A stretch of DNA of 64,000 nucleotides from NCBI GenBank assembly GCA_964035545.1, contig OZ037765.1, positions 25,977,504 to 26,041,503 on the forward strand. The letters are read 5' to 3'. Of this stretch, positions 15,943 to 30,665 are shown one piece after another. Under the pieces are notes generated by a model. It had not been told where the DNA came from and did not search any database. It saw nothing but the letters and a program-made list of their open reading frames with translations. Position numbers and translations under genes: made by a program. Position 1 is the stretch's first letter. Each line of letters starts with the position of its first letter. This DNA is from Bugula neritina (Eukaryota > Animalia > Bryozoa).

Positions 15943-17092
15943 ATGGCATATCCTTGGTTCGCAAAATCTAGCCATATTTGGAAAGTGTTCTGTTGCACAA
16001 ATGCTGCCAATTTAAATGGGGCTCAAACTTTAAACTATTTATACATAAAAGGTTGTTCATGGAAGATGTTGCAACCATTTGCAGTTAGAGGTTATACAGC
16101 TGCTCCGCCACCAGCCAAAAAACTTGGTACGTATTAGTAAAATAATTATTGAGTTAGTTGCAGTTACATTTAAAACTCCTACTGCTTGGCTTTTTGTGTT
16201 TAGAATAATTTGGTAATATAATAAGTTGAAGCAAATCCCGCATTGCTAGATGATTTGGCACCACAAAGATTTAGCCCCATTAATTCTAAAGCATTTATGG
16301 CAATCATTTTAAATTTCTTTTTGCTACTGCTGGTATGTTTTATATTAGCAGCTCAAGTTTGTATAGAACTTTAGACCAACAATAACAATCCTACTGTTAC
16401 TAAAATATCAACAGCAAAGGCAAAGTTAAGACCATGAAGATTAAACTCTAGATTTAAATAAATGGAGAAAACGATAATGGCATTTCACCTTATATTTGTT
16501 TCTCATATTTTGGTAATAAATCCTTGAAAATGTCTGCAAGTAGATAGTCAGCAGCTAATGGAGATGGGTTAAAATCTATTAAGACTCTCCAATATCTGTG
16601 TTAATACTATGAATATAATGGGCTCAATACAACCTTCTAAATTGCACTATAAATCTTCTACATTCTGTAAACTCTTTAGAGTTTCAGTATAGTTTTGTTG
16701 TAAATAGTATTTTCTTTTCAAAACTGGTGTGTTACTTCATGTATATACATTGTGGAAACTTATTATCTGTTACAGAGTATATGTAATTTTATTCAAAAGT
16801 TTCTTTTTCCATTTTAGGAGCGATGTCCACAACTGCACGACCTGGAATTGAAGTAGAGACTAATGCAGAAACTTTAACCAAGTACTGTTGTGGTGCAAAT
16901 ATTTATAAGGATGGTTCAGATCCTGAATTAAAACCGGACAATGAATATCCAGATTGGTTATGGTCACTAGACATAAACCCATTTGGAAAGACTTTAGATG
17001 ATTTGGATAAAGACACATTCAAGTACTGGAGATACATTAGAAAAGAGCATATGAAAAGAAATAATGCAAAAGCTAAAATTCGCTTCAAATGA
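15943..17092 (+). CDS. MRPL54: Mitochondrial ribosomal protein L54 (mL54), 2 coding exons, 152 aa
   Basis: Exons 15943-16126 and 16818-17092 join in phase (459 nt). Presequence-like N-terminus and CCGANIYKDGSDPELKPDNEYPDWLWSL motif. Confidence 0.9.
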
Positions 17093-17296
17093 GAACGCAG
17101 ACTACTTATTGATATGCTAGATCCAGCAAAGTCAATATTTGTTATTTCATTGATGAAGACTATTATTGAAAATCAATGCACAGTAGGTTTTTAAAAATCA
17201 TATAGGACACCTGTTTGTTGGTTGTATCTTTATCAAATCAAAATACAATAAAATTTCCACAACAGAAAAATTGTGCTTAAAAACTACTGCTATTTA

Positions 17297-17339
17297 TTAG
17301 ATAAATTGGGTAGTGATGAATACGCTTCAATTGTAAAAA
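17297..17339 (+). repeat. Inverted 43-bp copy of PEX11 exon 2 segment 18619-18661
   Basis: ttagataaattgggtagtgatgaatacgcttcaattgtaaaaa versus exon (sense) ttagataaattgggtagtgatgaatatgcttcatttgtgaaaa: 40 of 43 identical. Confidence 0.93.
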
Positions 17340-17408
17340 AAGAGCTGATAAAATGTTGGTAGTGAAAGCCTGTAATAAATAATTTTGAAGTAATTTACCA
17401 ACTTATTT

Positions 17409-19024
17409 TTATTTGTTTTGGAGTTTTAAATGTTCATTCCAAATAGTCAAAAGTCCAATTATTGAAGAAATGGCTCCAGTTGTTCCTTGCACTACACCAG
17501 AGATGCTTACATACTGTAAACTATTCATTGGTATTAATACATCAAATGCATTCTTCGCAGTATCCAAAGCAGTAGGGAGAACTTGAGGCACGCTGCTCAT
17601 TCCACGCCTCTGGATATGCCCTTGTGAATTTCTGTGCTGCTGGATTCGGTGCCAATCGTATATATTTCTAATCAAATTGACTATAGAGCTTAGCAGCCAG
17701 AATTGGTTGCACAATTTTGAGATTGGCTTTATGTCAATGTTTATTGCCTTCACTCTATGCAGCCATAAAATATGATCCAGAAAAAGAAAACAAGCACTAG
17801 ATATTCTAGATAGAGCAACACAGGACTGGATGACTATATCTTGAATGTGGAGAGCATCTTTGGCAGCATACAGCATTTCCAGGCTTTTCCCAAGTCTCAA
17901 CACTAAAAGAAAAAGCATAAAACAAATTGAATGTTTTTGTAAGGTGCAAGCTAATGCCAAACATCAAAATAAAGTGACTAAAATTAATTTTTATGATAAC
18001 TTTAGGCAAAGGTTCTGTCTCATTCAATAATATACAACTTGCTAGTATATGTGTTCAAAAGTTATAGGAGTTGTCTGCTTTTGGAAAGATGATGAGCAAA
18101 GTTGATAAAGATAACATAGACTTGATAATGCATCTGTAATCTATATACTATGATAAACAACTATAAGTAACAATTTTAAAAAGTTATTTTTAAGTGAACA
18201 GTTTAAAGAAAATTAATTTAAAAATCACTCAAATAATAATCTGTGGCAATTTAAATAATATTATAGTTATACCCCACAATTTTTCAGTTCCATCAACTGT
18301 ATTTTAGTAAATTTAAAACATTTCAATGATCACGATGGTTGCAAATAAATTGTCTGCTAAGAAAATTACTGGAGAAAAAAATTTTAGCAAAAATTTTCTA
18401 CTTTTTAAATCAAGTTATCATTAAGTGAAGCTAAAATATCAGTGAATAAACCTTCAAATGAAAAGACTTATTGCTGTAATCGATCAAAACTAGAAGAACA
18501 CAAATTGTGTTCTTATGTCTTTGTTTACATTTAACACTAAAAAGGAAGTAAAACAAATTTTACAGATTAACTTTACATTTCCGGGCTGTGCTGATGCTTG
18601 AATCTAATTTCTTGAACCTTTTCACAAATGAAGCATATTCATCACTACCCAATTTATCTAACAAATCTGCAAGAGCTCGGAAACTGTATTGTAGCAGCCT
18701 GCAAAACAATTCAGTAACTGATGCAGCAAACAAATTGATTAGCAAACAATTATCAGATCATAACTAATTCACAAATATTTCTTCATATAACTTTTAATAG
18801 CCTTCAACTTTACAAAATACCTATTCTTAAATCTTTTTGAATAGATGCTGATCCAAAGTAAGCAATTTTATTAATTATATTAATAGGAAATGCCAGCCAT
18901 TAAACCTGCCTAGGTTGCACAAAAAACATGCTTTGCAGTTTTATCCAAAGTATTACCTGCAAAACTTGTCCCTTGCTCCTGTCTTATTGCCAAATGCTAT
19001 AAGTTTCTTTGAAAAGTTGGACAT
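17409..19024 (-). CDS. PEX11: Peroxisomal membrane protein PEX11, 3 coding exons, 227 aa
   Basis: Exons 18957-19024, 18577-18698 and 17409-17902 sum to 684 nt. Motifs GARDKFCRLLQY, STARKLLRLGK, FLFLDHILWL, DTAKNAFDVLIP and GAISSIIGL. Confidence 0.92.
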
Positions 19025-20028
19025 TGCCCTGAAGTACTACAAATATTAATTAATAAGGACTTGTGACACGATTTCAAACTTAATAAACATAATATTGTAT
19101 GAACATGGTTGAATGACACTTCAACAAAGTATGAAGTAATAATTATTTAACATCTGCTTAGTTTTGATAAGATGAGGTTTAAAATATGTTAACAAAGACT
19201 TATTACATTACAAGTTCAAGTGGTAACTGCACAATCCTCAAAGTAACCAAAAATATGATACTTAGAGTTGATGTAAAATGAAAGAAATAATGTTATATTC
19301 CTACTTGATCTCAACACATTGTCAGTCGATTAATTCCATTTACAACAATCTAAATTTTTATATTATATTAAACATCAGTTATAGGTATTCTATGACTAGT
19401 AGTTTAACAGTAACAAATATTATTTGATGATTTTTCAAGTCTACATTCAGCTATGTAGCTTACAATGTACTAAATTTATATTAACCTGCAGCCCATTTGT
19501 GTAGTATAGCTAGAATTCAAAACCTTCAACCAGTATTGGGTTTCAATTTGTCTTAATTTTTAGTAACATTTTAATTTCCTCAAGCATCATTACATTTATG
19601 AAATATGACATGTGAATAGCTGCATTTAACTCAAATTTAAATGTGTTGAACTAATCTTATTTTTACACAACCCTTTTGGAATGTTAGCAATGTAACACAA
19701 ATTAGGCCTAACACTGTTTTTATTTATAGTTTTAAAAAGAAGCATAACTATAAAACTAAAATTAGAACAATAACAGTTATAAAACCACAAAAGCTATAGT
19801 AATTAGTATGTAGCCTGTGAAACTGTAGTTTAGTGTACATATTAGCCTTAGGTAGAGTACAAAATATCAATTGTGAATACCAGTACCAATATAAATGTCA
19901 CTTGTTAATCAATAAAAGCAGCATTAATCTATTGTAAAAATTAAAAAATAACTTATGGTGAGCTATCATGCAATTAAATCTACATTTAAGATTCAGTTTT
20001 ATCTAACTACTAGCATAAGTATTACTAT

Positions 20029-20334
20029 TGTGGTGGCTCGTGGAGCTACCAGCAACACAATACGCAAGGTTGCGTATTGACCCGGAACAATGTATTAGCC
20101 AATTAGCTAGGCTGTTTTATAAATAATAGTAGCCGCTTCGCGCTACTAGCTCAGTTGAGGATAGTGCTGTAAATTAAATAGACGTGCGTATCATTACTGT
20201 TGTACATTAGATTTTATTATGTATTCTTGTATTAAAATATAACGATATCTACTCGACTTAACTCGGTGAAGTTTCTCTAGTGTTAAATAGACTCTCTTGG
20301 TGGCACATCAACCCTAAATCTGGAAATCATAACA
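20029..20334 (+). repeat. Gypsy 5' LTR (306 bp)
   Basis: No differences from the 3' LTR found by eye. Contains a TATAAATA element and the hairpin caatacgcaa-gg-ttgcgtattg. Confidence 0.97.
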
Positions 20335-20335
20335 G

Positions 20336-20353
20336 TGGTGGCAGCAGTGGGAT
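20336..20353 (+). promoter_or_regulatory. Primer binding site complementary to the tRNA-Leu 3' end
   Basis: TGGTGGCAGCAGTGGGAT one base after the LTR. Its reverse complement ATCCCACTGCTGCCA-CCA matches the eukaryotic tRNA-Leu 3' end pattern. Confidence 0.85.
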
Positions 20354-20368
20354 TTGTGTATATCAAAG

Positions 20369-21235
20369 ATGGAGACTGAAAATGCTAGAATGCAACCACC
20401 CCCAGTAGAAGGTGAGCGTAGAAATGCTGTTAATCCTGTGAATCGTGAAGGAGAAGAAGCTTATAGACATTGCTTGAAAGCTCCCACCTTTACTGGGTCG
20501 GAAGATGTCGAACAATTTATACAAGAATTTAGAGAGGTAATGGAAGTTGCTCAATGGCCGCATAGAGTGGCCCTTATTCAATTGCGGAGAGCGGTGACGG
20601 AGCAAGCCAAGCCGTACGGAGTGGGAACGGACGTAGACGGGATACTGGCTGCGCTGCGGGCCCGTTTTGGCACCTCCGTAATAGACGCTAGGACCAAGCT
20701 AGAGAGATTGTGCCGCACCCCGCGGACCTCGCTGCAAGAACATGCCGCGACGGTGAAGAAGCTGGCGCAGATTGCATATAGCGATCTGCCAGCACAACAC
20801 CAAGAGCGTTACACCTATGACGCCTTTGTCCAGTCACTAAACGACCTGGGCCTAGACCATCACCTACGAGCTAAAGGGATAACCAGAATAGAGGATGCCC
20901 TGAAGGCTGGAGAAGCTTACCTGTTGGCTACCCAAATGCGTCGAGCACAAAGGAACCCACCAGTAGTTGGAGTCAGCGCTGCCAGGGCTACGACAGGCTA
21001 CGAAGCCCTCCCGCTGGAAGCCGAAGTGGACCGTATGGTAGAGATGCTGGGACAACTGGTAACCATTCTGGCCGGTGCTGGCCCCGGTCGGGCCCTGCAG
21101 GTGCCCCCAACACCTGTGGGGCAGGGCTGGAGTAGCGCTGATCAGGACCAGGGACAGAAAGGACGACCCCAATACCAGGGGGCGTTAAACTGTCACGGCC
21201 CGCGGACACTCTCCCTCCCCGCGGGCCGCAACTAA
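20369..21235 (+). CDS. gag: Gypsy Gag (288 aa from first ATG)
   Basis: KAPTFTGSEDVEQFIQEF...W capsid-like N-terminus; first ORF after the PBS; no intact CCHC knuckle. Confidence 0.88.
   Translation: METENARMQPPPVEGERRNAVNPVNREGEEAYRHCLKAPTFTGSEDVEQFIQEFREVMEVAQWPHRVALIQLRRAVTEQAKPYGVGTDVDGILAALRARFGTSVIDARTKLERLCRTPRTSLQEHAATVKKLAQIAYSDLPAQHQERYTYDAFVQSLNDLGLDHHLRAKGITRIEDALKAGEAYLLATQMRRAQRNPPVVGVSAARATTGYEALPLEAEVDRMVEMLGQLVTILAGAGPGRALQVPPTPVGQGWSSADQDQGQKGRPQYQGALNCHGPRTLSLPAGRN
21184..21228 (+). promoter_or_regulatory. Putative programmed -1 ribosomal frameshift signal
   Basis: G_TTA_AAC heptamer in the gag frame (21184-21190), 5-nt spacer, then a perfect 10-bp GC stem (21196-21205 with 21219-21228). 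The -1 frame stays open to 21645. Confidence 0.8.
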
Positions 21236-21523
21236 AGGAGTATGGTGGAACGCGCCGTCGTCTGTCCGTACGGACACGGCGGAACATTCCACCCGAGTGG
21301 CAGGTACCACGCAGGACTAGTAGGCCCGCACAACGGCCCAGTACCTTCTCCCTGCCACTCGCTAACCGGTTTCACCGGTTACCTCGGGAAGAGGAGCCCG
21401 CCACTGAAATGGAGCCAGAAGGCCCAGTGGAGAGCCCCAAACCCCGCCGGCACCAACCTCGCCGCCGGAAGCCCCGTAAACCACGGGTGAAACCCCCACT
21501 GTCCTGTCAATCCAGGACAGCAC

Positions 21524-24500
21524 ATGCGGGGGGGGGTGAAAGTACAACCACATGGAGAGAGCTATTTCCTACCCGGAAAGGTGGCTGGCAACGCCGTCAC
21601 TTTCCTGCTCGACTCCGGTTGTACTACCAACCTTCTCAGTCGTAGAGTCTTTGAGGCACTGCCCCGCCGGGACAGGGATAGAGTACGACCGTATACTGGA
21701 GAACATGGCACCCTGGCAGACGGGTCATGTATCCCCTTTTATGGTATTATCGAGCTCCCTGGGCGTGTCCGAGATCAGGCTGTACAGGAGACCTTTATCA
21801 TAGGTCAACTGGAGGAAGATGCTATCCTCGGAATGCCCTTCTTGAAGCAACACCAGTGCCGAATAGATTTTAGTAAGTCGGTGGTGCTGATGGGCGGGCG
21901 AGAACTCGCCTGTGTGGATAAGTTTGGGCGTCCTCTGGTGGGCGGTGTTCAGGTAGTTCGAAACTGCACCGTACCCGGACGCTCCAGAGCTACTATCCAC
22001 TGCCGAGTGAACAGCAACCGGATAGCCAGGCTCGGGGTTGTTGAAAGCGCGCACGAAAAGATCCAACTCGCCAGTAGTTTAAACCGACTAACTGAGCGAG
22101 GGGAGGTCTTAGTGCAGTGCGTCAACCCCTTTACCGAGCCCATTGAGCTCCCAGCTGGGTCAATGCTGGGCCGGTTCCATTCCGTCCAGGAAGAGGACGT
22201 GGGCCCGTCGCTGGGTAACGCGACGGAGGCACCCCCTCGACACCCTATTCAGGGACGAGGGGCAGTCCCAACACATCTCCGGGAGTTATACGAAACAGCC
22301 AGTGGCGGCTGCGCGAGTAACAGAGAACGCCAAGCTATGGCCAAGTTACTACGCGACTACGGTGATGTGTTCAGCAGCGGAGAGCATGACGTGGGACTGA
22401 CTGGAATTGTCAGACACGAAATACCGCTGACTGCAGGGACAGTCCCTGTCCGGCAGCCCACGCGCAGGCTGGGGCCGGAGAAAGAGAAGGAGGTTAGCCG
22501 ACAAGTACGGGATCTTCTGGACCGGGGACTGATAGAGCCCGCTCATAGTGCGTGGAGCTCGCCAGTCGTACTGGTCCGGAAGAAAGACGGCAGTTGGCGG
22601 TTCTGTGTGGACTACCGCAAACTCAATAGCGTAACCATACAGGACGCCTACCCTCTACCTCGTATTGACGAGTCATTGGACGCCCTAGCCGGCAGCAAGT
22701 ACTTCAGTACGTTAGACTTGCTAAGCGGCTATTGGCAGGTTCCTCTGAGTCCCGACGCCCAAGAGAAAGCGGCGTTTATCACACGGGACGGTTTGTGGAA
22801 GTGGAAGGTGCTGCCCTTCGGGTTAACCTCCGCCCCAGCCACCTTCCAGAGGCTGATGGAACAAGTCCTTAGCGGACTCCATTGGAAGACACTGTTGGTC
22901 TACCTCGATGATGTCATCGTAATCTCCCCAGACTTCGAGACACATGTCAGTCGTCTGCAGGAGGTTTTCGAGAGACTCCGAGGTGCCGGTCTTAAGCTCA
23001 AACCTTCCAAGTGCGCTCTGTTGCAGCCGGAGGTCAAGTACCTGGGGCACGTTGTCGGTCGAAACGGCGTGGCAACGGATCCCGAAAAGGTACGGGCAGT
23101 AGAAGACTGGGTCACCCCCCAAGACTTGACCGGACTCCGGGCTTTCTTGGGGCTGGTAGGGTATTACAGGCAATACATACCAGACTTTGCGGGCATAGCC
23201 CAGCCGTTAAACCGGCTCACCGCAAAGGGAGTGACGTGGCAGTGGACTCCAGTCGAACAAGAAGCGTTCGACCGCCTCAAGGGCTGCCTCCTAACGGCGC
23301 CCATCTTGGCCTACCCAGACCCCACTCTGGAGTACATCCTAGACACGGACGCCAGTGACCAGAATGTTGGCGCTGTGCTGTCACAAGTGCAGGAAGGCCG
23401 AGAGGTAGTAGTAGCCTACTACAGCAAGTCTCTCTCTCCCGCTGAACGAAATTACTGCACTACCCGCAAGGAGCTGCTGGCAGTAATCAAGTCAGTGAAG
23501 CACTTCAGACCATACCTATATGGCAGGAAGTTCCGGCTGCGTACGGATCATGCCTCGCTGATCTGGTTGTGCAGGAGAGCAGAGCCCTCTAGTCAGGTCG
23601 CCCGGTGGCTCGAAATCCTAGCTGAATTCTCATACCGGATCGAACATCGACCGGGCAAGAGACACAGCAATGCGGATGGGTTGAGTCGCCGACCTGACGG
23701 AGGTTGCAAACAGTGTCTCAACATCGAGAGGAGGGATGGAGGTCCCCCACGATGCGAGTTGGAGACGCTGGCTCATCACGGAGCACCGTTTGACTGGGAT
23801 CAAGGTCAACTCAGGCAAAGAGTTGATGAGTCCCCGGAGGATGTACAAAACCTCCGCGCCAACCCTGTACTGGCCGGTAATGTTCGAGAGCTGAAGAAGC
23901 TCCAAGAAGAGCTGCCTGGAGTCGTGGCAGACATATACCGGGCCAAAAGGGAAGGGCGACGACCCAGCGAGGAACGCATACGACAGGGATGCGCCGAGTT
24001 CCGGCTATACTGTCAGCGTTGGGACTCGCTGCGGATCGGGCAGGATGGGTTGCTAACCATCTCTCTAGCTGCCAGTGGCAGACACCCGGAAAGGAAGAAG
24101 GTAGTCTGCCCCACAGCCATCCGCCGTGAGTTGATTTGGGATACTCACAAGCAGGCCCACGCAGGGGTCAAGCGAGTGATATCCAAATTACGACTCCGGT
24201 GGTATTGGCCGCAGATGGAGCGTGACGTCCGGCTCAGAGTCAAACAGTGTGAGATCTGCCAGGCCAGTAAGCATAGCCGCCCCCCTGGTGAAGCAGGACG
24301 GCGGAGGCTATATGCTGGTAGGCCCTGGCAAGTAGTCGCTGTAGACCTGGTCGGACCCATGCCCCTGACCCCCAGAGGCAATAATTGGATCCTAGTACTA
24401 ACCGACCACTTTACTAGGTGGGCGGATGCTCTGGCTATCCCAGATGCATCAGCCCCAACAGTGGCCAGGGCGCTAGACCAACATGTATTCTGTTATTTTG

Positions 24501-25810
24501 GGCTTCCCGAACAGATACACTCTGATCAAGGCGCTCAATTCCAGTCTCAACTGATGAGCGACCTTTGCCACCTCTGGGGAGTAAATCGGAGCAGGACCAC
24601 CCCCTACCACCCTCAAGGTAACGGGGTGGTGGAGCGCAACAACCGGATGCTAGGTGATGCACTCCGGAGTCTCCTCCTTGGACGAGGTCAAGAGGAATGG
24701 GATACGGTGTTGCCGCAAGTCATGCGTGCATACCGTAGCACCCCACACACCAGTACTGGTGAGACCCCAAACCTCTTGATGCTCGGGAGAGAGACTCGTG
24801 TCCCTGACCATCTCACCTATCACGTTCCAGAGCAAGACAACTCGGTTCACGAGTATGCCAGTGAACTAGTGGAACGGATGAAGGCCGCACACGATATACT
24901 GCGCCAACAGCAGTGGAAGGTGCGGCACGAAGATTCCGATGAACCACCCCTCTATCAAACGGGAGATAAGGTGTGGATGGTCAATTACCGTAGGCGTCGC
25001 GGACAGGCTGATAAACTGAAGCCTAAGTTCGTAGGCCCCTACGTGGTCGTCGAGGCTATGCCCAATCATACGTACAAGATTGAGCGCTCAGGACAGGTGT
25101 CTATCCAGAATGAGTCTCGCTTGAAACCGTATTGGGCTAGCCCTGACGGAGTGGGAGAAGCCCCCCCGTTGTTAGAGCCCAGGAGGCAGACAACGACGCG
25201 CGGGCGACGGCGGCATGGACCTGAATACGAAGTGGTCATACCGCGGGAGGAAAACTTGGTGAGAGAGGAGCGGCAGCTTTTGTCAACCGAAGCGTGTCCG
25301 CCACCACCAAGTCTAATTCCATCACTTCCAGAAACCGAGCCGGTTCCGGAAGTGCAAACCCCCACGGAGGGAGGGGCTCCATCCGGAGAACAAGAAGAGG
25401 TGACCGCTAACGGTGAAGTAGAGACGCCATTAGAGGCCCCTACTAACGAACCGGCAAGCGTGTCACCCCCCCTAGAAAGGGGACAGCGTACGAGGAAACC
25501 CCCACCGTATTTGAAAGACTTCGTATGTGACTGCATTAGAAGCGGCGCACATGAAAGTCTAGGGGAAAACCGTACGATAAAATGTTGGAGTTGTGAACCC
25601 CACGCAAATATCAACTTTTGCGAGGGCGGAATAGTGGGAGGAATTAATGCGCGTAAAGCAAATAGTTCCGACCTCGTGCCTCAGAAACGATGCTCAGCCT
25701 TTTCTTATGCTGACATCGCCAAAGGCAGACGTATCTCACAACCAGCTCCAACCTTACCAAGAACGTTGAGTATGGACATTAATACCGAGTTCCCAGGTAA
25801 GCCAGTATAA
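21524..25810 (+). CDS. pol: Gypsy Pol polyprotein (protease, RT, RNase H, integrase); true N-terminus probably in the -1 frame from 21184
   Basis: Protease LLDSGC; RT WRFCVDYRKLN, LPFGL and YLDD; RNase H DTDAS; integrase H-x3-H...CEIC, VDL/SDQG/VER DDE triad and a GPY motif. Confidence 0.96.
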   Translation: MRGGVKVQPHGESYFLPGKVAGNAVTFLLDSGCTTNLLSRRVFEALPRRDRDRVRPYTGEHGTLADGSCIPFYGIIELPGRVRDQAVQETFIIGQLEEDAILGMPFLKQHQCRIDFSKSVVLMGGRELACVDKFGRPLVGGVQVVRNCTVPGRSRATIHCRVNSNRIARLGVVESAHEKIQLASSLNRLTERGEVLVQCVNPFTEPIELPAGSMLGRFHSVQEEDVGPSLGNATEAPPRHPIQGRGAVPTHLRELYETASGGCASNRERQAMAKLLRDYGDVFSSGEHDVGLTGIVRHEIPLTAGTVPVRQPTRRLGPEKEKEVSRQVRDLLDRGLIEPAHSAWSSPVVLVRKKDGSWRFCVDYRKLNSVTIQDAYPLPRIDESLDALAGSKYFSTLDLLSGYWQVPLSPDAQEKAAFITRDGLWKWKVLPFGLTSAPATFQRLMEQVLSGLHWKTLLVYLDDVIVISPDFETHVSRLQEVFERLRGAGLKLKPSKCALLQPEVKYLGHVVGRNGVATDPEKVRAVEDWVTPQDLTGLRAFLGLVGYYRQYIPDFAGIAQPLNRLTAKGVTWQWTPVEQEAFDRLKGCLLTAPILAYPDPTLEYILDTDASDQNVGAVLSQVQEGREVVVAYYSKSLSPAERNYCTTRKELLAVIKSVKHFRPYLYGRKFRLRTDHASLIWLCRRAEPSSQVARWLEILAEFSYRIEHRPGKRHSNADGLSRRPDGGCKQCLNIERRDGGPPRCELETLAHHGAPFDWDQGQLRQRVDESPEDVQNLRANPVLAGNVRELKKLQEELPGVVADIYRAKREGRRPSEERIRQGCAEFRLYCQRWDSLRIGQDGLLTISLAASGRHPERKKVVCPTAIRRELIWDTHKQAHAGVKRVISKLRLRWYWPQMERDVRLRVKQCEICQASKHSRPPGEAGRRRLYAGRPWQVVAVDLVGPMPLTPRGNNWILVLTDHFTRWADALAIPDASAPTVARALDQHVFCYFGLPEQIHSDQGAQFQSQLMSDLCHLWGVNRSRTTPYHPQGNGVVERNNRMLGDALRSLLLGRGQEEWDTVLPQVMRAYRSTPHTSTGETPNLLMLGRETRVPDHLTYHVPEQDNSVHEYASELVERMKAAHDILRQQQWKVRHEDSDEPPLYQTGDKVWMVNYRRRRGQADKLKPKFVGPYVVVEAMPNHTYKIERSGQVSIQNESRLKPYWASPDGVGEAPPLLEPRRQTTTRGRRRHGPEYEVVIPREENLVREERQLLSTEACPPPPSLIPSLPETEPVPEVQTPTEGGAPSGEQEEVTANGEVETPLEAPTNEPASVSPPLERGQRTRKPPPYLKDFVCDCIRSGAHESLGENRTIKCWSCEPHANINFCEGGIVGGINARKANSSDLVPQKRCSAFSYADIAKGRRISQPAPTLPRTLSMDINTEFPGKPV

Positions 25811-25827
25811 GTCTTGTATTCCTATTC

Positions 25828-26899
25828 ATGGAAACGGGCTCAATGCCAGTAAATTCTGAACTAATTCAGCAGATTGAATCAGAATTACTGGGAACCACGT
25901 TCCATGTGAATGACGATGAAGACACTGTAATGGCCGATGGTCTGTTAGACCTGGAGCTAGACACTGTTCTTGGTCAGTCCACACATGATTCATCAGTTCC
26001 TCGAGTGCATTCCAAAAGCTGTGACTCTCAGGCTAGCAACGGTCGACAGTCACTAGAATTATGTTGTAAAGATCCACCGCGATCTAACAATAATTCTACT
26101 TTTGTAGACACACTCGCGCCCGTCTCTCCGGGCATGCCTTCTCTAGAGATGGCGTGGGACCCAGAGCCGGCCCCAACAACTTCTACAACCAGGCAACTGC
26201 CACCCCAGTTGGAAGCAACCTCCAACTGGATTACCCCTGCCACAGAGAGAAATCAGGACCCATCAAGGAGGTGAGAGTAATCGTGAATGCAACCTCTGCC
26301 AGCAGCGATTCACGACCCACCGCAGACTAAAAGTACACTTGCCGCAGCACTACATCACCACTTTCTGTCCTTGCGGAGAATATAGCTACAATCGTGATTA
26401 CCTATTGCGGCACCAACGTACTATGCAGTGTTATCAAGGGCATGTCTATGAAGTAGACGAATCATCCTATCCTGCCTTTCTCAACGCCATCAAACCACTC
26501 ATCACTGACTCAGCTCGGCTATCTCGCCTGGAGCAAGGCTTCCCTTCCCCGCGACCCATCATCTCTGGAGCCGCAGATAAACCTACACAGTCTACTAACT
26601 CTCCACCTCACAGTCCTCTACGCATGCCGCATACCTTTCCTCGTGTCGTACTACAGAGGGTAGACACAAATGCGTATACACTCCCTCCTCCCCTTCCATC
26701 CTCAGAGCGGAAAAGACATAGACAGCCGACTTCCTCTCGCTCGTCCCCCTGGGCCCGCAACCTACGTGAAGTAGAAGCTAGGGCACACGACTTGGAGCAA
26801 GAAGTGTACAGACTGGCCCCACGGGTGCAGGCTGCATCCAGTGAACTCAAATATTTACAGGAGTCTATTAAACGCATGAAGCGTGCGGCCCGCAGTTAA
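25828..26899 (+). CDS. Gypsy ORF3: acidic N-terminus, C2H2 zinc finger(s) and C-terminal coiled coil, split over two overlapping frames
   Basis: The frame of 26339..26899 is open upstream to 26147 and reads CNLCQQRFTTHRRLKVHLPQH (26288-26350) then CPCGEYSYNRDYLLRHQRTMQC. It overlaps ATG-ORF 25828..26274 by about 130 nt. Confidence 0.7.
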
Positions 26900-27160
26900 C
26901 TTGAGTCTACCTACAATTCCATACTACCCTCCCCCTACCTCTCTGTGGCATTCCCTACCGTAATGGTGGCACGTACTCTACATGTAGATAGGACCTTCTC
27001 TTGCTTATTACTTAGTGTGCACGTTATATATACCTGTATATTTTTATCAGTTGTTGTTTTTTTTGTATATACTTTTATACTGTTCTCTTACCCCCCCCCC
27101 ACAACGAAGTATACGTTTTTTTATGTGAATTTTATTTTATCAGAAAGTGGGCTTTCTGCT

Positions 27161-27171
27161 GGAGGGGGCAG
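27161..27171 (+). promoter_or_regulatory. Polypurine tract of the Gypsy element
   Basis: GGAGGGGGCAG immediately before the 3' LTR. Confidence 0.85.
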
Positions 27172-27477
27172 TGTGGTGGCTCGTGGAGCTACCAGCAACA
27201 CAATACGCAAGGTTGCGTATTGACCCGGAACAATGTATTAGCCAATTAGCTAGGCTGTTTTATAAATAATAGTAGCCGCTTCGCGCTACTAGCTCAGTTG
27301 AGGATAGTGCTGTAAATTAAATAGACGTGCGTATCATTACTGTTGTACATTAGATTTTATTATGTATTCTTGTATTAAAATATAACGATATCTACTCGAC
27401 TTAACTCGGTGAAGTTTCTCTAGTGTTAAATAGACTCTCTTGGTGGCACATCAACCCTAAATCTGGAAATCATAACA
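27172..27477 (+). repeat. Gypsy 3' LTR (306 bp)
   Basis: Direct repeat of 20029-20334. Confidence 0.97.
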
Positions 27478-28306
27478 CTATTACTATTAGTATTAGTGAA
27501 ATGAAAAACACATAGGCTTTTCCCTTAAGGCAATTGCAGTTTGATGTTTCATTTTCTATTGAATTTGATAACTATGGTTTATGTCATAATATAATAATAT
27601 ATTATTTAATACATTTGATTAATATTAAAACTATTTTTATTAATACACTATCACTTACAGTATGAATATTGGGGTAAGTATTAGTTAAAGATTAACACGT
27701 TGCTTCTAAAACATATTTTTTCCATTGTAAATTTATCGAGCAAATTGAAATATAAGTACATCTGCAAACTTATTAATTTGTTATACTTTTTACGATTAAA
27801 TACGGACGATCACTATGTAAAACTAAAAGTAAAAACCAAGTCCAACCGTTCATTTTTAAATTGAAACTGAAAAGTAGAGTCAGAGTGAGAGTATTTAATT
27901 GTCGGTGGATTAAAGGCTTTGCTAAAGCCAAACGGAAATAAGGTAACAACAATATAAATAAATATAAACATTTGCAAAAGTGAAACTTGATCATTATAAA
28001 TACTTTGTACATAATAAATTTATTATCCATCGTGTTGAGAAACAATCATGCGATCCTATCGCTAATCACATTCATGACAATCACGTGACAATATGCTAAC
28101 TAATTGCTTTACTAGAATCGCTGTATACTTGTTTACCCCTTCTCTTCCGTTTTATATTATACAAAACCATCACGCTGTTTTTCATTCAAATAAATATTTT
28201 ATTACCAAATAATTAAATCAGTCAGTCAGTTTGCTCGATAAGTTAAATCAGCAATCAATATCGTATTTCATAATAAATACTATACACGATGGCAACACAT
28301 TCAACA

Positions 28307-28320: not shown

Positions 28321-28504
28321 ATGCTTTGTAGCCATCAACTTCTACCCTGCGACTTGCTCCACGAGGTAGCTACTAATACTAATCACTCACACTGTACAGT
28401 GTCACTCACACTGTACACAATACTACTACTACTCACTGTACAGTGTCACTCACACTGTACACAGTACTATTACTACTCAGTACTCACTCACTCTACAGTG
28501 TCAC

Positions 28505-29117
28505 TCACACGGCACACACAGACACAGACCGGAACACACACCGGCACAAAGACTGGAACACACACACCGGCACAAAGACCGGAACACACACCGGCACAGA
28601 CCGGAACACACACCGGCACACAGACCGGAACACACACCGGCACACAGACCGGAACACACGCCGGCACACAGACCGGAACACACACCGGCACACAGACCGG
28701 AACACACACCGGCACACAGACCGGAACACACACCGGCACACAGACCGGAACACACACCGGCACAAAGACCGGAACACACACCGGCACACAGACCGGAACA
28801 CACCACACACACACTGAAACACAAACCGGCACACACACCAAAACACAAACCGGCACACACACCGGCGCACACGCCAGAACACACACTGACACACACACAC
28901 TGACACACACAGACCGAGACACACACCGGCACACAAACCGACACACACACCGGAACACAAACCGACACACACCTCGAAACACAAACTGGCACACGCACCG
29001 GAACACACACCGGCGCACACGCCAGAACACACACTGACACGCACACACTGAAACACACACACTGAAACACACACCGGCACACGCACCGTAACACACCGGC
29101 ACACACACCGGCACACA
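28505..29117 (+). repeat. 24-bp (2x12) AC-rich minisatellite accggaacacacaccggcacacag, degenerating towards the 3' end
   Basis: About 12 near-perfect units at 28527-28800, followed by decayed units. Confidence 0.95.
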
Positions 29118-29405
29118 AAACAGCAGAAATGGTACCCAGAATACCATGCCACAAGAACCTGCACAAACATGCGGAAATGACGCAATGAACGTCATACCAC
29201 AAGGACTCGCACTAAACAGCAGAAATGGTACTCAGAATACCATACCACAAGAACCTGCACACAAATGCGGAAATGACGCAATGAACGTCATGCCACAAGG
29301 ACCCGCACAAAACAACAGAAATGGTACTCAGAATACCATACCACAAGAACCTGCACAAAAATGCGGAAATGACGCAATGAACGCCATGCCACAAAGACCT
29401 GCACC
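29118..29405 (+). repeat. 96-bp tandem repeat x3, each unit made of two diverged 48-bp subunits
   Basis: Units start at 29118, 29214 and 29310 and translate as NSRNGTQNTxPQEPAQ/xCGNDAMNVxPQGxAx. Confidence 0.93.
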
Positions 29406-30307: not shown

Positions 30308-30665
30308 GAGGGGGCGTGTTGAGAAACAATCATGCGATCCTATCGCTAATCACATTCATGACAATCACGTGACAATATGCTAACTAATTGCTTTACTAGA
30401 ATCGCTGTATACTTGTTTACCCCTTCTCTTCCGTTCTGTTATACAAAAACCATCGTCATGTTTTTGATTCAAATAAATATTTTATTACCAAATAATTAAA
30501 TCAGTCAGTCAGTTTGCTCGATAAGTTAAATCAGCAATCAATATCGTATTTCATAATAAATACTATACACGATGGCAACACATTCAACACATCGTTCATA
30601 GTCATTGTGATTGAGTGATGGTCAATGTAATGAATAATTATAATCATAATGGCTATAATAATCGA

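Follow-up and report, generated by a model that had tools for sequence, protein, structure and literature searches.

Simple LTR retrotransposons are assumed to rely on the transcription factors of their hosts, and in foamy viruses an accessory gene, tas (bel1), lies near the 3' end. According to excerpts of two articles, its product is dimeric, combines a DNA-binding with an activation domain and binds the LTR (PMC3798896; PMC517496). A second system is known from the Ty3/Gypsy element Cer1 of C. elegans, whose nuclear accessory protein CERV is described in the available part of its source as a 517-aa protein that arises from a spliced mRNA and has a Cys finger (a possible C4 finger), a coiled coil, a G-protein-like domain and M domains that form rings (PMC10309623). 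Within the excerpted literature, CERV is the one element-encoded regulator of animals with a tested function that we found, and it acts on RNA export. Extra ORFs after pol are already known as well: excerpts on bdelloid rotifer LTR elements report non-env ORF3s, and excerpts on plants additional ORFs, of env-like, GDSL esterase, DEDDy exonuclease, coiled-coil/TM and antisense types (PMC5408684, PMC7264820). These excerpts make no mention of a finger-bearing extra ORF, and a finger ORF of the kind reported here is not described in the available parts of PMC2774666, PMC13524379 and PMC8556966.

The window (the whole 64,000-nucleotide stretch of Bugula neritina DNA analyzed) contains a retrotransposon that forms a 7.45-kb GC-rich island within AT-rich sequence. 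Its LTRs, primer binding site, polypurine tract, target duplication and order of pol domains (protease, RT, RNase H, integrase) are those of a Ty3/Gypsy LTR retrotransposon, and it carries a third gene (ORF3) that, like the extra ORFs of rotifers and plants, is family-specific and lies between pol and the 3' LTR. The features of the element outside ORF3 are as follows.

20025-20028 and 27478-27481: 4-bp target duplication, CTAT, flanking the LTRs
20029..20334, + strand: 5' LTR, 306 bp, TG...CA, identical to the 3' LTR
20058..20079, no strand assigned: perfect inverted repeat in the 5' LTR with 10-bp arms and a 2-bp spacer, a candidate site for a dimeric protein
20336..20353, + strand: primer binding site, presumably of tRNA-Leu type
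20369..21235, + strand: ORF in the gag position
21491..25810, + strand: pol, with protease, RT, RNase H and integrase (H2C2, rve, SH3), then a long Pro/Glu-rich tail
27161..27171, + strand: polypurine tract
27172..27477, + strand: 3' LTR, 306 bp

The element is young and its insertion recent. A Pfam search with the gag-position ORF gave no gag match. This copy may be defective in gag too, because stops at 21233 and 21488 interrupt the gag frame ahead of pol; a second frame is open over 21142-21645 with a G run near 21528-21538, and either a lesion or a programmed frameshift is conceivable. Ahead of the polypurine tract, 27128-27178 is conserved in the DNA of related runs X5 and X6 and includes a short inverted repeat (CAGAAAG/CTTTCTG). 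Minisatellite arrays with 12-bp and 48/96-bp units (28375-29404) lie a short way downstream of the element, within a direct repeat spaced by 2.28 kb (28031-28306 and 30315-30589). On the other side, 16787-17963 holds two short host ORFs, which we take to encode mitochondrial ribosomal protein L54 (+) and PEX11 (-), and the arms of a 48-nt inverted repeat lie at 17292 and 18619.

ORF3 begins at 25828, in a different frame from pol, which ends at 25810, and its parts are arranged as follows.

25828..26245, + strand: 5' part of ORF3, with a conserved Met start, an acidic Leu-rich region and the start of the core domain
26021..26053, + strand: RNA hairpin 1, compensatory pairs 26021/26053 and 26029/26045
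26054..26098, + strand: RNA hairpin 2, hypervariable loop 26075-26080, compensatory pairs 26054/26098 and 26072/26083
26197..26560, + strand: core domain, with a Trp helix, fingers 1 and 2, a strand and two helices, split by the frameshift
26243..26250, + strand: frameshift breaking ORF3, in a short purine run where other copies also have an indel
26708..26722, + strand: basic patch RKRHR, NLS-like by sequence
26762..26899, + strand: C-terminal helix pair, predicted to dimerize, with the stop at 26897-26899

The preliminary description of this DNA had proposed that a single shift would fuse two ORFs into a 356-aa protein, and comparison with homologues bears this out. Similarity to the closest homologue (P0001) switches frame near 26243-26250, with 81% identity over 136 aa for the 5' piece and 68% for the 3' piece. 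The continuity of the gene in relatives, which had been proposed as a check, is also found: 58 of 135 close homologues (a set that includes 12 cluster members) span the break, and 13 of these are complete at 355-366 aa, with complete homologues reaching down to about 50% identity. Loss of the gene from sibling copies, or decay of its Cys and His residues, had been named as grounds for abandoning the idea; siblings keep the gene, and the eight ligands are conserved in 90%-96% of the rows covering them. The start Met is likewise kept in 50/50 rows that cover that column. At the break itself, a small indel is present in two contigs of run X1 (about a third of the summed depth) and in one X2 contig, and about two-thirds of the summed X1 depth shows no indel. 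The broken form may therefore be present in several copies, or short contigs may end near the site; X1 possibly derives from the same sample as the window. Among the listed base changes in ORF3, 22 of 38 are synonymous against 24%-31% expected (P of 7e-4 or less), a count that comes from a biased sample (40 listed of 94 rows, 38 of them in ORF3) and is not a dN/dS estimate.

The acidic character noted earlier for the upstream ATG-initiated ORF (25828-26274) holds, with 13 D/E against 1 K/R in the first 61 aa. So does the view that the product is not an envelope protein: hydropathy means over 19 residues do not exceed 0.96 in 12/12 long homologues tested and in both window pieces, so that ORF3 has no membrane helix and lacks the signal peptide and transmembrane anchor of env. 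Searches of Pfam, PDB and BFVD at E ≤0.001 gave no match to viral fusion proteins, although an absence of this kind does not rule out such similarity. A donor-like CAG/GTAAGC near 25797 had been offered as a hint of splicing. The pattern CAG/GTAAG at 25794-25801 fits the consensus but is not evidence for splicing, since it occurs 8 times in the window against 7.2 expected by chance; moreover, a donor at 25797 would yield no ORF3 message, which would require an acceptor there. A possible donor/acceptor pair is AAG/GTGAG (20409-20416) with the AG at 25795-25796, the donor pattern again being at chance level.

The core domain, about 125 aa in intact homologues, contains the two fingers recognized in the preliminary description: finger 1, C-x2-C-x3-F-x5-L-x2-H-x3-H (26288-26350), and finger 2, C-x-C-x12-H-x5-C (26366-26431). 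Finger 1 has ligands conserved at 91%-95% and a best whole-sequence match to SALL3 (E 1.1e-4), and its score against PF00096 is 16.9 bits, below the Pfam gathering cut-off of 25.2. Finger 2 is a C-x-C knuckle with a variable fourth ligand, joined to finger 1 by a linker of five residues, YITTF. The linker consensus of tandem C2H2 transcription factors is TGEKP, and ORF3 has neither a linker of this type nor a canonical second finger. AlphaFold modeling of the whole ORF3 gave a confident core and confident C-terminal helices with disordered parts between them. Modeled alone (128 aa of homologue P0003), the core reached a pLDDT of 92.5 and a pTM of 0.83, with three of five models agreeing at this level, and is predicted to be one globular domain in which helices wrap two tandem fingers. 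Residues 22-82 of this model give a weak overlay on tandem C2H2 fingers, Kaiso being the best (Z 3.6, rmsd 3.0 over 58 residues) and tandem-finger overlays having an rmsd of 2.3-3.8. The top nine structural rows are all C2H2-DNA complexes, a ranking that is unable to separate DNA from RNA binding because tandem fingers in the PDB are mostly DNA complexes. No Z of 5 or more was obtained against 48,161 chains, Foldseek of the core against PDB and BFVD returned nothing at E ≤0.001, the flanking helices had no clear structural match, and Foldseek with the full-length model matched long helices only. ORF3 thus shares the finger 1 pattern and the tandem overlay with classical tandem C2H2 proteins such as SALL4, Kaiso and WT1, but differs from them in its score below the Pfam cut-off, its C-x-C second finger, its short linker and the embedding of its fingers among flanking helices.

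The regions on either side of the core recur in relatives. Of 70 proteins with 90 aa or more ahead of the core, 58 have an acidic-hydrophobic window there, as do 23 of 30 among the later-found, mostly distant proteins, compared with 13 of 76 control downstream parts. The RKRHR patch reported earlier, now placed at 26708-26722, has counterparts ahead of the coil in 37/41 homologues and downstream of the core across the family (78/102 proteins). The C-terminus previously described as heptad-like begins at 26762, and the corresponding helices of P0001 are predicted to form a dimer: the score of 0.36 against 0.02 for the best control is a narrow pass, with runs agreeing in at least 97% of contacts at a pLDDT of 76. 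The dimer mark used was reached by 21/30 solved homodimers and 0/23 single chains, and in further sets by 17/29 eukaryotic and 7/16 animal dimers and 0/30 single chains; the score may stem from likeness to solved coils. A motif M-x3-L-x2-L-x-hydrophobic, which by consensus we take to be NES-like, is present in 39/58 homologues, and its last position is Pro in 15/58. The order of acidic-hydrophobic region, double finger, basic patch and predicted dimer coil recurs across the family, including its very distant members.

ORF3 also appears to carry an RNA-level signal. Residues 61-90 are predicted to be disordered yet are conserved like the fingers, and this stretch has the deepest cover within ORF3 in two related runs. 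It coincides with two adjacent hairpins of modest folding energy (z -2.5), and 11 of the 246 windows scored along the element were lower than the best window overlapping them. The seven variants listed in the hairpins comprise five in loops or the bulge and two changes from G-U to A-U. Pair 26021/26053 is A-U in 52, G-C in 15 and G-U in 1 of 73 distinct segments and is disrupted or ambiguous in the other 5, with bases read from the amino acids of homologues, third positions blind and rows related. Its G-C state requires three changes, two of them forced by strong branches, on a tree built without the hairpin segment (49/83 rows). The loop codon varies in 50 of the 73 segments, compared with 0-11 for the fully paired codons of hairpin 2. 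Among pairs that stay at least 85% canonical, changes on both sides are found for 4/14 predicted pairs vs 187/4,828 background pairs (Fisher P 0.002), and the changes that tolerate G-U indicate that the sense RNA is the folded strand. A blind scan by mutual information ranked 26021/26053 6 of 4,851; kinship alone gives signals of that size, because the five top-ranked pairs are not predicted base pairs. The predicted pair 26026/26048 is not kept in relatives. Nonetheless, the hairpins at 26021-26098 covary, as expected of the structured RNA bound by CERV/Rev-like factors, and are likely a conserved RNA structure, the evidence being good but not final in view of the inferred bases, the blind third positions and the kinship of the rows. 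The structured region may extend beyond these two hairpins. No Rfam family matched the element at E ≤1, hairpin pattern scans of metagenome and viral contigs found none, and the hairpin-encoded peptide is absent from four distant proteins that have the fingers (P0101, P0103, P0104, P0106). As a separate observation, a candidate third hairpin is located at the ORF3 start (25847-25891, window z -4.8), and, of the 246 windows of 90 nt scored with 20 shuffles each, four of the eight most stable lie in the pol tail and at the ORF3 start (25399-25908).

A search with the 3' piece of ORF3 returned 48 homologues and a profile search 126, none named by source. HMMER over 1.84 billion representatives gave 314 matches at E ≤0.001 and 136 at 1e-10, the best 150 of the 314 including at least two ordinary many-finger proteins. 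In 53 distant rows picked by their Cys/His pattern, the ligands are surrounded by Trp, Thr, Gln, Phe, Gly, Arg and Val residues that are conserved in 81%-96%, and Pfam recognized no family at E ≤0.001 in the core of 25 of 26 distant members tested. An organism was named for 2 of 30 clusters looked up, and both are bryozoans: Watersipora subatra (XP_067940964.1) and Bugula neritina (KAF6040922.1). Both proteins are uncharacterized and share with ORF3 the core domain and a helical, heptad-like C-terminus. The Watersipora protein differs in having two copies of the domain and annotated isoforms, and so may be a host gene; it groups among element-like rows in an unrooted, weakly supported tree of 56 domains, and its domestication is a guess. 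Isoforms aside, the core pattern matched twice in two proteins, and proteins with two stretches are P0136/P0275, P0159 and P0199.

The family is tied to Gypsy pol, as judged from the proteins themselves, because six members have pol-tail-like sequence in frame with ORF3 (P0174 at E 1.9e-5, P0103 at pairwise E 5e-5, P0254 at E 0.015, and P0262, P0187 and P0203 by motif or eye) and one joins an integrase SH3 stretch to ORF3 sequence. In this element, the fingers are not in frame with integrase. The conserved ORF3 Met is the first residue in 63/274 proteins, only two extend upstream, and an integrase core together with fingers occurs in 0/274; a weak search among proteins of 969-2765 aa found no fused form either. 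Scans of metagenome and viral contigs with the ORF3 alignment, and of viral contigs with the integrase region, gave no loci.

We favor, at a probability of roughly 45%, the reading that intact ORF3 is a nuclear dimeric transactivator of its own LTR, like foamy-virus Tas. The basic patch would direct nuclear import, the C-terminal helices would form the dimer, the double finger would bind the DNA of the element's own LTR, and the acidic N-terminal region would likely activate transcription. The hairpins would be a separate cis-signal of the element RNA, and broken copies such as that in the window would be served in trans by intact sister copies. The layout, kept in very distant members, is the plan of a dimeric activator, the core model resembles the tandem fingers of DNA-binding proteins, and Tas provides a precedent. 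By analogy, the two would share the position of an accessory gene near the 3' end, an acidic region with a putative DNA-binding domain, and a predicted dimer in ORF3. They differ in that foamy viruses are retroviruses with env while this element is env-less, and in that the excerpted text of a Tas review (PMC3798896) mentions no zinc finger while ORF3 has two; no Tas sequence or fold turned up among the Pfam, PDB and BFVD matches of ORF3. A possible target is the LTR palindrome (20058..20079), which lies upstream of CCAAT (20099) and TATAAA (20118) and whose 10-bp arms were reached by 5 of 800 shuffles. However, a change at the matching 3' place (27214) in most of the X1 depth shortens the arms to 8 bp, a length reached by 39 of 500 shuffles, and the palindrome is imperfect in one X3 contig end and only partly kept in sister copies. 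The weak structural matches, which leave DNA and RNA binding inseparable by ranking, and the short linker without TGEKP also count against an LTR activator, and conserved RNA structure within the ORF suits an RNA-level role at least equally.

The main rival is accordingly a Rev/CERV-like post-transcriptional regulator that binds structured element RNA, oligomerizes through its C-terminal helices and aids the export or stability of genomic RNA, which we consider unlikely overall. In its favor are covarying hairpins in the sense direction, an Arg-rich patch, the predicted dimer, the NES-like motif in 39/58 homologues, and CERV as a precedent in a Gypsy element in the available part of PMC10309623. 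CERV and ORF3 are both accessory proteins of Ty3/Gypsy elements with a Cys finger and a coiled coil (predicted for ORF3), but the finger pair of ORF3 is C2H2 plus CxC-H-C, and the other features by which CERV is described are absent from ORF3. Any ORF3 message would carry the hairpins too, given their location past the ORF3 start; they fold with modest energy, the finger-bearing P0101, P0103, P0104 and P0106 lack the hairpin peptide, and the NES-like motif ends in Pro in 15/58. The six proteins with in-frame pol-tail-like sequence, which count against an LTR activator, would instead fit a finger domain that was by origin, and in some families still is, a C-terminal targeting extension of Pol/integrase, comparable to the chromodomains of chromoviruses, the separate ORF being derived. 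Four of the six could be placed on the tree and are spread over both halves. Nonetheless, this is improbable given the many proteins that start at the ORF3 Met, the lack of any join between integrase core and fingers, and the lack of an indel or stop change at the pol/ORF3 junction among the rows listed for X1. The anatomy that suits an LTR activator would equally serve an anti-silencing factor that binds element DNA and keeps or removes host chromatin marks with no direct polymerase recruitment, for which the sequence-specific VANC proteins of plant transposons are a precedent; Pfam scans of 19 and 26 members found no enzyme or chromatin-reader domain, and the acidic region is better suited to direct activation, so that we give this little credence. 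A captured host zinc-finger fragment, functionless for the element and open by chance or through constraint on the RNA, might account for the truncation of most database members, the broken yet young window copy, the X1 depth without an indel and the host-annotated bryozoan proteins with the domain. It is largely refuted already by the 13 complete ORFs, the conserved ligands and the excess of synonymous changes, and we regard it as very improbable.

What the preliminary description inferred thus stands in part: a conserved, non-env third gene with a transcription factor-like layout is found, and nothing favors its alternative of a nucleic-acid chaperone. It overlooked that the copy is broken, that a wide family is tied to Gypsy pol, and that the ORF contains conserved RNA structure. 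Regulators are already known for Cer1 and foamy viruses; we found no description of ORF3 in the literature, and as Repbase, Dfam, GyDB and supplements lay outside the search, a catalogue entry may exist. Taken together, we tentatively suggest that an old, uncatalogued double-zinc-finger family may be the sequence-specific activator of bryozoan Gypsy elements, arriving independently at the Tas strategy in env-less elements, that its gene may also carry a conserved RNA signal, and that hosts may have taken over the domain as two-copy genes. The results add a new domain of 125 aa to annotation, one that may have derivatives among host genes, and illustrate that seeming protein conservation in a disordered region can arise from RNA structure. 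Moreover, a family-wide transcription factor-like ORF3 makes it possible to test directly whether env-less elements drive a positive feedback of their own.
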